In this document: positions 1,752 through 3,768 of the stretch, in pieces
Numbering within the stretch: position 1 is the stretch's first letter
Layout of the letters: the number at the start of each line of letters is the position of its first letter
Assembly (NCBI GenBank): GCA_000993615.1
Contig: LBWM01000003.1
Location: forward strand, 16,125-80,124
Length of the DNA stretch: 64,000 nt
Source: Candidatus Peregrinibacteria bacterium GW2011_GWF2_39_17
Lineage (GTDB): Bacteria; Patescibacteriota; Gracilibacteria; UBA1369; UBA12473
Direction of reading: 5' to 3'
The notes under the pieces: generated by a model
Database searches by the model: none
Seen by the model: only the letters and a program-made list of their open reading frames with translations
What the model was told of the DNA's origin: nothing
Program-made: the position numbers and the translations under genes

Positions 1752-1780
1752 TTGACTTTAAGTGTTTATTATGATATAAA
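1752..1780 (+). promoter_or_regulatory. Sigma70-like promoter upstream of the GC-rich two-gene islet
   Basis: TTGACT (1752-1757), a 17-nt spacer, then TATAAA (1775-1780). An RBS-like GGAAGGGA lies ~8 nt before the ATG at 1891. Confidence 0.4.
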
Positions 1781-1890
1781 TTTGTAGTCTTGTCTAGTAT
1801 GCCGTTTTGTGTATTTTCACGGGGCGGCGTCAGACATGCCCCTTGAAAACTACATGTCAGAAACATTTTAACATTTCGGAAGGGAAAATT

Positions 1891-2451
1891 ATGGATCTCA
1901 AGGATCGACTCCGACAACGTGCTCAGGCTGCCAATGATTCCGCAACCAATTCCCTCACCTCTGAAAGGGCTGTTGCTGAACAAGCTGCGGCTATTACGTC
2001 AACCCCTAGCTCTCCTCTGCGCGTGGTTGTAATCCACGCTCCCGGAGACAAAACGATTGCCGAGGGATTGAAGAGTGGCTGTGCTGGTCTTAGGCGTCAG
2101 TACGGTGCTCGTCTCATTTTCGACTTAGTTGAGCTAAACCACCGGACGCCCTCAATCCTCGAACAGATGCGTGGGGAGAGAATCATTGTGGTCCCGGTGC
2201 TCAGCCAGGACTTCTTCGACCTGGATATCGATAACCCCATTGAAGGAATCATCATCGCTCGCCATGAGGAACACATGTGGCGAGCTGTTCCGATGAAAGG
2301 GAGGAAAGTCGATTACAGTTTCAGCAAGTTCCGCGCTCTTCAGGAAATGCCTAGGGAATCGATGTGGTGGAGCACGGCTAGCGACAAGGATACATTCTTC
2401 TACGCGACTGCCGTCATGATGAGAGCAATCGTTGAACCTGCACTTAACTGA
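1891..2451 (+). CDS. Hypothetical protein with a TIR-like (flavodoxin-fold) domain, encoded in a high-GC islet
   Basis: ORF 1807..2451; the ATG at 1891 has an RBS. After a disordered N-terminus, 'RVVVIHAPGDKTIAEGLKSGCAGLRRQYGARLIFD...ERIIVVPVLSQDFFDL' follows the TIR betaA-alphaA-betaB...betaC pattern. Local GC is ~57% in a sampled line, against ~35% in the flanks. Confidence 0.5.
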   Translation: MDLKDRLRQRAQAANDSATNSLTSERAVAEQAAAITSTPSSPLRVVVIHAPGDKTIAEGLKSGCAGLRRQYGARLIFDLVELNHRTPSILEQMRGERIIVVPVLSQDFFDLDIDNPIEGIIIARHEEHMWRAVPMKGRKVDYSFSKFRALQEMPRESMWWSTASDKDTFFYATAVMMRAIVEPALN

Positions 2452-2462
2452 AAGGACCATGT

Positions 2463-3350
2463 ATGCCAACTGTATCGATCTTCGCAAACAAGGCTGACGT
2501 CGAAGCGACGCGAAAAGGCCTTGTTCAATTGCTGTCACGTCGAGATGTACCCATCTGGGTATCGTGGAATGCATGTATGCCTGGAGAAAATGCGCGTGAA
2601 GCCTATGCAGCGGCCTTTCGAGCCAATCTGCTGGTCATCGTGATTTCTTCAGAGATGATTGCATCGACTCTCTACGATGAATTGATTCGGGAAATTCAGA
2701 ATCGCGTAGCTCGAATGGGCGCTGAAGAAGTTTTGAAGCAAGTAGTCTTCATCTATCTTCGATCCGCCTGGTTCGAGTCAAGTGATTATACCGTTTTCCC
2801 TGATAGCGAGAAAGCCATCAATTCATATTCCTCCGCGCGTCAGGAGGAGCTGTGGGTGACGATCCAGAAACAAATCTCGCAAATGTTCCAGGCTGTTCCT
2901 GACCGACCGATGGAATCCCAAGGGACGAGTCTTCGAGATCGTCTCATGGCACGGAATGCCGATGCCACCCGTGGACAAATTGGAGAGAAGGAAATCGAAG
3001 ACGAGGCAGCTCAGGAGCTCGAAGCCAGACAGATCTATGCTAACGCTGTGGCTGACCTCGAGCGTCAGGCTGCTAGCCCGCACGTTCGGATAGCCTCGGT
3101 CGAGCTTTGCACCATCAATGTCGAAAGGGAAACGACCGGCGTGGTTCAGGTCAAGAAACCCGAACATCTGAACAACTTGTGGAGGCTCGGACGGCATTCG
3201 CTCCCAGAAATGCTTCGGGGGCTCCCTCTGAAGCTCGTCGAGCTGTTCGCTTCCGATGATATCGTCCCCGAGATCACGCTCAAGTACCCCGAAAGCGAGT
3301 CCCGCGTCTGGACCGAGGCAAAGCTCATCGTGCGCGTGCAACTCCGCTGA
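2463..3350 (+). CDS. Hypothetical protein: N-terminal TIR-like domain plus an unknown C-terminal ~170-aa region
   Basis: AAAGGA RBS 6 nt upstream of the ATG. 'VSIFANKADVEATRKGLVQLLSRRDVPIWVS...PGENAREAYAAAFRANLLVIVISSEMIASTLYDELIREI' matches the TIR pattern [VI]x[VI]S-x-x-[YM]-A-x-S-x-[WY]-x-x-EL, including the position of the catalytic Glu. The C-terminal half has a coiled-coil-like stretch followed by a beta-rich region with no motif I recognise. Confidence 0.55.
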   Translation: MPTVSIFANKADVEATRKGLVQLLSRRDVPIWVSWNACMPGENAREAYAAAFRANLLVIVISSEMIASTLYDELIREIQNRVARMGAEEVLKQVVFIYLRSAWFESSDYTVFPDSEKAINSYSSARQEELWVTIQKQISQMFQAVPDRPMESQGTSLRDRLMARNADATRGQIGEKEIEDEAAQELEARQIYANAVADLERQAASPHVRIASVELCTINVERETTGVVQVKKPEHLNNLWRLGRHSLPEMLRGLPLKLVELFASDDIVPEITLKYPESESRVWTEAKLIVRVQLR

Positions 3351-3360
3351 GCGTTTACTT

Positions 3361-3378
3361 CGGAGCCTCTGCGCTCCG
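3361..3378 (+). terminator. GC-rich hairpin immediately after the second islet gene
   Basis: cggagc-ctctgc-gctccg forms a 6-bp stem 11 nt after the stop at 3350. There is no clear U-tract. Confidence 0.3.
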
Positions 3379-3422
3379 ACCAACTACTCTACTGACATGT
3401 ATTCAACAAGGGTCCAGCTAGT

Positions 3423-3446
3423 GGGCGTTGAATACAATCAACGCCC
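3423..3446 (+). terminator. Second hairpin at the right edge of the GC-rich islet
   Basis: gggcgttga-atacaa-tcaacgccc forms a perfect 9-bp stem. No U-tract follows, and the composition drops back to AT-rich directly after it. Confidence 0.35.
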
Positions 3447-3768
3447 CTAGCTACACCCGACTGCTATTCACATTTTATGAATCCTCTTTTTAAAAAAGGA
3501 TATTTTGCTTAAAGGCCTAACATTTTTGGCACCTTAAAATCTATTGATATTGCCCTCAGGCTGGTCTGAACATCTTCCGAAGTGGAGCTCCAGATTATAA
3601 TAATACGGCCTAAATCGACCTTTTTAGCTTATATAAGCCATTTTTAATTGATTCGAGTAAGCCCAATATGAATTTTGTCTGAAAAACGTCATTTTAAATA
3701 AGAGATAGGGAACTTTTCCTATTATCGAGAAAGTGATTTTTTTGATGGCCATTTTTATGGCTGTTTAC

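Follow-up and report, generated by a model that had tools for sequence, protein, structure and literature searches.

The window analysed here, a stretch of 64,000 nucleotides (nt) from contig LBWM01000003.1 of Candidatus Peregrinibacteria bacterium GW2011_GWF2_39_17, contains a GC-rich islet that carries two adjacent genes, designated orfA and orfB. The islet spans positions ~1819–3463, with no strand assigned, and has a G+C content of 52.6% (866 of 1645 bases), compared to 38.2% in the remainder of the window; both of its junctions are found in five independent assemblies. Islet-sized segments taken from outside the islet average 38.2% G+C (standard deviation 2.4%, maximum 45.0%), placing the islet about 6 standard deviations higher, and it is the single instance of a GC-rich block of such size across the 64 kb. 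An earlier interpretation made from the letters alone (referred to here as the sequence-only reading) had described a jump in composition between ~1815 and ~3450, and its hand counts (34/60 G+C at 1981–2040 and 21/60 at 3841–3900) were reproduced exactly on recounting.

The first gene, orfA (1891–2451, plus strand), encodes a protein of 186 amino acids (aa) with a predicted N-terminal helix (residues 3–35) followed by an alpha/beta domain. The second, orfB (2463–3350, plus strand), encodes a 295-aa protein predicted to consist of an N-terminal domain of alternating beta/alpha structure (residues ~1–145), a long helix (157–202) and a beta-rich C-terminal domain (206–294). Both proteins are orphans, with OrfA showing a weak similarity to BtpA-type TIR domains over residues 40–115. 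The G+C contents at the first, second and third codon positions (GC1/GC2/GC3) are 0.58/0.44/0.56 for orfA and 0.62/0.41/0.58 for orfB, while GC3 in the genes adjoining the islet is 0.27–0.38, and the islet DNA is therefore coding-like and compositionally foreign. Antisense shadow open reading frames (ORFs) of 140 and 186 aa are present in the islet, as had been noted, but they are not exclusive to it as had been claimed, since a 170-aa antisense ORF lies opposite ilvD. The ilvD region (7630–9486), where this ORF is found, also has a milder GC bump (0.44–0.50).

The two genes are on the same strand, separated by an 11-nt gap, and are each preceded by a purine-rich motif resembling a Shine–Dalgarno (SD) sequence (GGAAGGGA at 1878–1885 before orfA, AAGGA at 2452–2456 before orfB); the adjacency, the gap and the two ribosome-binding sites described in the sequence-only reading are all present in the sequence. 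A promoter-like site on the plus strand (1752–1780), read from the sequence, consists of TTGACT (1752–1757), a 17-nt spacer and TATAAA (1775–1780). It was not listed by a consensus scan, the rule of which demands T at position 6 of the –10 hexamer. This site had been proposed as the islet's own near-consensus promoter: the two hexamers and their spacing exist, but they sit in the AT-rich left flank, outside the islet. A weak stem-loop in the 5' leader (1799–1831, plus strand; RNA fold of 1785–1900, z = –1.9) straddles the left GC boundary, and requires G-U pairs, so that it forms only on plus-strand RNA. Following the orfB stop codon are a first GC hairpin with a 7-bp stem (3360–3379, plus strand) and a second, long GC hairpin with a ~15-bp stem (3416–3452, plus strand) at the right edge of the islet, with no U-tract after it. 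The region of these hairpins has z = –6.1, and none of 200 shuffles folded equally well, in agreement with the earlier description of two GC hairpins at this edge, which are real and very stable. The pair thus has the appearance of a two-gene transcription unit of its own, as had been suggested, with a promoter-like site in its flank, probable translational coupling and strong 3' hairpins.

The orfA–orfB pair is bracketed by an imperfect inverted repeat of 21 nt (17/21 complementary; CCCTTG..A.TACATGTCAG), with the left arm, CCCTTGAAAACTACATGTCAG, at 1840–1860 on the plus strand and the right arm, CCCTTGTTGAATACATGTCAG, at 3392–3412 on the minus strand. Neither the repeat nor its 9-mer core, ACATGTCAG, has any further copy in the 64 kb. 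Of 400 shuffles, 1 produced an equally good repeat between the two boundary windows, as did 2 of 400 controls with real sequence (empirical p ~0.003–0.005). The GC-rich DNA reaches 20–50 nt past the arms. The repeat may delimit a small mobile cassette, allow the mRNA to pair its 5' end with its 3' end, or provide paired operator sites. An integron gene cassette with an attC site (R''-L''...L'-R', 57–141 bp) was considered and rejected: the candidate motifs ATTCAAC and GTTGAAT at 3401–3433 are only 19 nt apart, and there is no tyrosine integrase (IntI), the recombinase being of the serine type.

The operon sits in the cargo arm of a tRNA-Gly/serine-integrase/primase element, in a low-GC, Peregrinibacteria-like genome of the candidate phyla radiation (CPR) from aquifer groundwater. 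The window begins just inside this integrative element, the left part of which (locus L001, 879–7446) directly precedes window position 1. There, a tRNA-Gly(TCC) gene and the gene for a 529-aa large serine recombinase (phrog_95, E = 1e-69) overlap, the former with its 3' end and the latter with its last codons and stop region. The recombinase gene is followed, on the minus strand, by genes for a 208-aa orphan, a 55-aa ribbon-helix-helix-like protein, a 724-aa Toprim primase (phrog_47, E = 4e-27) encoded 4 kb upstream, a 53-aa ORF and a 417-aa orphan. Divergent from this block are a DNA methyltransferase (MTase)–Mrr fusion gene, the islet, and genes for a 757-aa SLT+GDSL protein, a 258-aa protein and a 213-aa papain-like protein, beyond which lie ilvD, a gene for a transglutaminase-like protein, and gyrB. 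The right boundary of this element was not located: the 3' end of tRNA-Gly is not directly repeated, and comparison with the integrase end gave no repeat, inverted or direct, of any significance. A 14-mer that matches at 54661 is attributed to chance.

The islet thus combines a deviant composition and its own transcription signals with a position in an element whose integrase gene adjoins a tRNA gene, the features expected of a horizontally acquired islet. Its foreign composition and its location in mobile-element cargo uphold the horizontal acquisition put forward in the sequence-only reading, and orfA–orfB is very probably a recently acquired foreign cargo operon. Islets of orphan genes are common in the cargo of mobile elements. 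Like the cargo genes ('morons' or islets) of tRNA-integrated serine-recombinase/primase elements and of defence islands, orfA–orfB is distinct in composition, separately promoted and terminated, and located beside a gene of the restriction–modification (RM) type; it differs from them in belonging to no recognizable family and in being bracketed by its own 21-nt inverted repeat, in an element whose right end was not located.

To the right of the islet, positions 3831–7584 hold three lineage-specific genes of host-like GC. The 757-aa protein combines an SLT transglycosylase with a GDSL esterase, the 258-aa protein has a faint match to arylamine N-acetyltransferase, and the 213-aa protein has faint matches to papain-fold glutamine deamidases and transglutaminases. 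The palindrome GCTTAT(N)TAAGCC, with a T-run after it, is present both at 3626–3646, 165 nt beyond the right edge of the islet, and within the 3' end of the integrase gene (L001 977–997); the two copies agree at 16/20 positions, which is the level of chance, and may represent terminators of similar type or sequence related to att. At 63401–63474, on the minus strand, lies another tRNA-Gly gene (anticodon CCC), which is unrelated to the attachment site of the element. For a comparison with an empty site, a pattern scan found no relatives of the 757-aa neighbour in GTDB genomes or JGI metagenomes, and the ilvD loci of related Peregrinibacteria metagenome-assembled genomes (MAGs) end before the region needed. 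The closest ilvD genes are from Peregrinibacteria, Peribacteria and Gracilibacteria MAGs (69–78% identity), the nearest being those of Peregrinibacteria/Peribacteria (74–78%), which hints at the lineage of the organism. The published Ca. Peribacter riflensis genomes have a GC content of 58.5% (PMC4736985), and the organism of the window is therefore a different, low-GC lineage of the same aquifer.

Immediately to the left of the islet, and outside it, lies the gene (79–1707, plus strand) for a DNA methyltransferase (Pfam N6_N4_Mtase, E = 1.7e-44) fused to a C-terminal Mrr-type nuclease (Mrr_cat, E = 2.1e-9), which is also matched by the type II/III MTase models of PADLOC. Its product is a typical member of a widespread family, that of the stand-alone MTase–Mrr fusions, retaining the Mrr D...QxK motif (GIDG...VQIK). 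A set of 80 full-length homologues (43–58% identity) was retrieved from metagenomes, mostly of the groundwater type, and an OrfA- or OrfB-like neighbour was found beside none of them. Their downstream genes vary, encoding an IS200-like transposase, CysS, NYN, SocA/Panacea, HEPN AbiU2-like, PD-(D/E)xK nuclease, RmuC or exonuclease proteins, as well as DnaX and trigger factor (the last two identified by reading the sequence, without a scan). Given these heterogeneous neighbours, the MTase–Mrr fusion is regarded as a stand-alone gene and its partnership with orfA–orfB is unsupported. The adjacency of islet and MTase–nuclease fusion pointed out in the sequence-only reading holds, but the suggested cooperation does not gain support, the MTase–Mrr gene having a host-like GC content and being separated from orfA by a 183-nt gap that contains the promoter-like site. 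Several of the neighbours of MTase–Mrr homologues are toxin–antitoxin- or defence-like (Panacea, HEPN AbiU2-like, NYN, PD-(D/E)xK).

To identify homologues of OrfA and OrfB, several sequence collections were searched. A word-indexed search of 5.8 billion clusters returned only the proteins themselves. An exhaustive phmmer search with OrfB against 1.84 billion representatives returned OrfB and one spurious tandem-repeat protein, the E-value of which is inflated by its eight tandem repeats. No match was found in IMG/VR with OrfA, OrfB or the MTase, none to plasmids or phages by blastn, and nothing relevant among solved structures (PDB) by sequence search. None of the collections yielded a relative or a donor that would bear on the host-to-symbiont transfer considered conceivable in the sequence-only reading. 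The two proteins were also considered as paralogues of each other, which was rejected: their Smith–Waterman score of 46 was reached by 14 of 500 shuffles, and MAFFT places them in no common register.

In the sequence-only reading, orfA and orfB were taken to encode two tandem TIR-like proteins. For OrfB, the Pfam TIR_2 family (PF13676) gives a match with E = 0.034 (15.1 bits) for the full-length protein and E = 0.0078 (17.1 bits, residues 11–83) for the N-terminal domain alone, both below the cut-off of 28. The secondary structure predicted for this domain, b-a-(b)-a-b-a-b-b-a, is compatible with a five-stranded flavodoxin-like fold. A single-sequence AlphaFold model of OrfB is of low confidence (predicted local distance difference test, pLDDT, 44) and shows alternating strands and helices to residue ~145, the long helix and the beta-rich C-terminus. 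A VELC...VVQVKK pattern is visible by eye in the C-terminal domain; the assignment of this domain as a PD-(D/E)xK/Mrr-type nuclease was rejected, with E = 0.57 in an hhalign comparison to a profile of 57 Mrr domains and no Pfam match at E ≤ 10.

For OrfA, no Pfam match was obtained even at E ≤ 10. Its similarity to TIR domains comes from a BtpA-family profile built from 26 TIR proteins, retrieved with a BtpA + Rv0004 query, which aligns with residues 40–115 over 72 columns with 25% identity to the consensus. The corresponding motifs line up as VIHAPGDK/ISHASEDK, GARLIFD/GAKIFYD and VLSQDFFD/VLSEHFFS (OrfA/BtpA). By hhalign, the comparison has E = 3e-4 with a probability of 39%, and the trimmed domain gives E = 1e-3; probabilities over these comparisons range from 22 to 39%. 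The single-comparison E-value by HMMER is 0.002. The score of OrfA was reached by none of 200 OrfA shuffles and by none of 600 size-matched ORFs from unrelated loci (maximum 23.9, compared to 27.5 for OrfA). OrfB does not match this profile (E = 0.12). The AlphaFold model of OrfA (single-sequence, pLDDT 61, pTM 0.54) is also of low confidence, with helix 3–35 followed by an alpha/beta core. Two different profiles thus provide weak and mutually independent hints of TIR-like domains, one for each protein.

When compared to TIR_2 proteins such as Brucella BtpA/TcpB and Thoeris ThsB, both OrfA and OrfB can be overlaid, in order and spacing, on the succession of betaA-Asp, alphaA, betaB, a loop (PG in OrfB), alphaB and betaC-Ser, with alphaC beginning at an acidic residue. 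A coiled coil beside the TIR domain also occurs in BtpA. However, the two proteins differ from the TIR_2 proteins in scoring under every threshold, in lacking the Trp of the WxxxE motif, in having the Glu displaced by 1–2 residues, and in having no homologues. They also differ from Thoeris, CBASS-TIR and SPARTA systems in that no SIR2, Macro, SLOG, STING, Argonaute or CD-NTase/cyclase partner is found near them. The sequence-only reading could likewise recognize no ThsA-like effector, STING, Argonaute or cyclase nearby, and PADLOC agrees over ~10 kb: for the ten neighbouring proteins it gives no match except primase-like ones for the Toprim protein.

The reading that we tentatively favour is that of an acquired cargo operon functioning as an accessory conflict module, either for defence or for addiction, whose biochemical core would most likely be formed by flavodoxin/TIR-like domains. 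In OrfB, a coiled coil would link an N-terminal flavodoxin/TIR-like domain to a C-terminal domain rich in beta structure, the latter possibly serving as a sensor or oligomerization module, and OrfA would be a second alpha/beta partner, possibly TIR-like, sharing the helical segment. If the TIR assignment is right, the simplest mechanism would be activation-dependent oligomerization and cleavage of nicotinamide adenine dinucleotide (NAD+), with no separate effector. These components are not equally probable: the presence of at least one true TIR-fold domain in OrfA or OrfB is close to an even question, leaning slightly to the negative; a conflict or defence role of the operon is possible but somewhat doubtful; and a catalytically active NADase would be unlikely.

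A number of observations weigh against this reading. The unrelated DciA family (PF05258) outscores TIR_2 over the same stretch of OrfB, with E = 0.003 for the full-length protein and 0.0011 for the N-terminal domain. Among ten reversed or shuffled OrfB N-terminal domains, the best Pfam E-values were 0.018 and 0.03; other orphan proteins of the element reach E = 0.02–0.09; and a TTG-extended orfA, which includes untranslated leader, gives a match to Ski2_N at E = 0.006 that is taken as spurious. A match with an E-value of about 0.01 is therefore barely distinguishable from noise. Similarly, the window's own ilvD scores 30.3 against the BtpA TIR profile, compared to 27.5 for OrfA, and non-homologous alpha/beta proteins can therefore attain such scores. 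Foldseek searches (PDB) with the OrfA model retrieved lumazine synthase and other generic flavodoxin-like proteins (E ≥ 1.9e-3, TM-score 0.25–0.40), with no TIR among the 50 best, and neither those with the low-confidence OrfB model nor those against BFVD gave anything usable or any TIR. As read from the sequence, the Trp of WxxxE is absent from both proteins, and the spacing of the Glu is off by 1–2 residues. In OrfB (S63-x4-S68-x2-Y71-D-E73-L), the Glu comes 1–2 residues early relative to the canonical S-x4-S-x2-W-x3-E; in OrfA (S-QDFF-D-LD-I-DNPI-E118), it comes 1 residue late. A candidate for the catalytic Glu ascribed to the betaC-alphaC motif of OrfB in the sequence-only reading is accordingly present near that position, but at a shifted spacing and without the Trp. 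PADLOC, PHROGs and NCBIfam return nothing for OrfA or OrfB, no curated threshold is reached by either, and PADLOC finds no known defence partner within ~10 kb. In the absence of homologues of either protein, conservation of the gene pair cannot be demonstrated. Finally, the contigs that carry the locus are identical apart from N gaps, with no single-nucleotide polymorphism among them, and selection is not measurable because of this lack of polymorphism. With OrfB below threshold for TIR_2, OrfA without a Pfam match and Foldseek without a TIR, the proposal of two tandem TIR-like proteins is not established.

Of the competing explanations, the one that survives best, though still on the unlikely side, is that the islet is a functionless hitch-hiker, a piece of an unsampled phage or plasmid, captured recently, with intact ORFs that serve no function in this host. 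The complete lack of relatives, a GC content that has not drifted toward the host value, and the occurrence of the sequence in one clonal population only would all be expected in this case. However, both long ORFs are intact (the calculated probability of a 295-codon ORF in random sequence of 52% GC is ~2e-6), the operon has SD motifs, coupling, a promoter and hairpins resembling terminators, and the islet is retained in assemblies of several samples and sequencing runs.

A self-contained defence system of two TIR proteins in tandem, both catalytic, that would consume NAD+ or generate a signal, perhaps in cooperation with the MTase–Mrr protein, is quite unlikely. It is suggested by the sub-threshold TIR_2 match of OrfB, by the BtpA-like motifs of OrfA (VIHAPGDK, GARLIFD, VLSQDFFD) with their hhalign E-value, and by the location in mobile-element cargo beside an RM-type gene. 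It is opposed by scores that are without exception under threshold, by a WxxxE motif that is intact in neither protein, by the empty PADLOC result, by the MTase–Mrr homologues that have no conserved partner, and by the differing GC content of the MTase gene and the promoter-like site in the intervening gap. The same low probability is given to a more elaborate form of the proposal, in which OrfA and OrfB would be a self-contained two-protein TIR-like immune module of an unsampled lineage, with no relative in ~15 billion proteins, brought from a higher-GC donor as an inverted-repeat-bracketed mini-cassette inside the integrative element.

It is still less probable that the operon is a replication or maintenance accessory of the element, in which the N-terminal domain of OrfB, as a helicase-operating domain of DciA-like (KH-like) type, would work for the primase of the element. 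DciA is the best-scoring Pfam family for OrfB residues 27–96, the 724-aa Toprim primase is encoded nearby, and the ungapped pattern W..G..A....L.V.V.S....L of OrfB matches the DciA/DUF721 protein Rv0004 of M. tuberculosis. However, the score of 18.2–19.5 bits (19.5 bits at E = 0.0011) is below the cut-off of 24, the mycobacterial DciA (Rv0004) profile matches neither OrfB (E = 0.44) nor OrfA, and the GC content of the islet is far from that of the primase gene, implying a separate origin. Furthermore, whereas the usual form of DciA is a ~90-aa KH-like domain with a short tail, OrfB, at 295 aa, additionally has a strand at the N-terminus, a coiled coil and a beta domain, and its N-terminal strand with Asp and five b/a units over 145 aa suit a flavodoxin-like domain better than a 90-aa KH-like one. 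In 2 Mb of collected loci, no TIR or DciA family members were found with which to broaden the profiles.

A structured non-coding RNA or other non-coding element, with the ORFs being accidental, is highly improbable: structured RNAs do stand out as GC-rich in low-GC genomes, and the hairpins at the right edge are strong, but Rfam has no match to the islet at E ≤ 1 beyond a chance snoRNA, the antisense ORFs have no family matches, and coding DNA is indicated by the codon-position GC, by the presence on one strand of two long ORFs with SD motifs, and by an OrfA model that is foldable.

The integrity of the locus was examined in other assemblies. The exact OrfB protein is encoded on 14 contigs, and the five placements inspected all have the same neighbours. 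The assemblies inspected were the ENA MEGAHIT k127 assembly of SRR1658473 (115-kb contig), an IDBA scaffold labelled ANAN16-1, NCBI GCA_000995295.1 (LBXF01000057.1), ENA k141, and the Logan assembly of SRR29904083. Apart from two stretches of N within the MTase gene, the contigs have the same DNA as the window, and both GC junctions are identical in at least five assemblies from different assemblers and samples. Contigs break at conserved MTase motifs (window positions 226–241 and 1105–1133) and never at the GC borders: one scaffold has N gaps at both positions, and two other contigs begin at 1131–1133. The gap at 226–241 falls on the conserved DPPF motif of the MTase gene. These gaps probably reflect graph tangles with other metagenomic MTase genes, as opposed to a structural variant. 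That the DNA of a higher-GC organism was joined into a CPR contig as an assembly chimera, as the sharp GC boundaries and metagenomic origin of the sequence might suggest, is therefore very unlikely, to the point of being negligible, given identical junctions, breaks that are confined to the MTase gene, and a promoter and leader that are continuous across the left GC border.

The locus shows a striking GC islet with a motif-level resemblance to TIR proteins that profile and structure tests do not bear out. As a singleton without comparators it cannot yet found a family, since it has no relatives, or be generalized. As the proposed TIR-type immune function is no more than weakly suggested, the locus is a curiosity of modest interest and does not amount to a proven new defence system. 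If the weak TIR signals are real, orfA–orfB would represent a very divergent, effector-less TIR pair in a CPR bacterium. The defence repertoires of CPR bacteria are poorly known, and horizontal input into them from higher-GC organisms is of interest.

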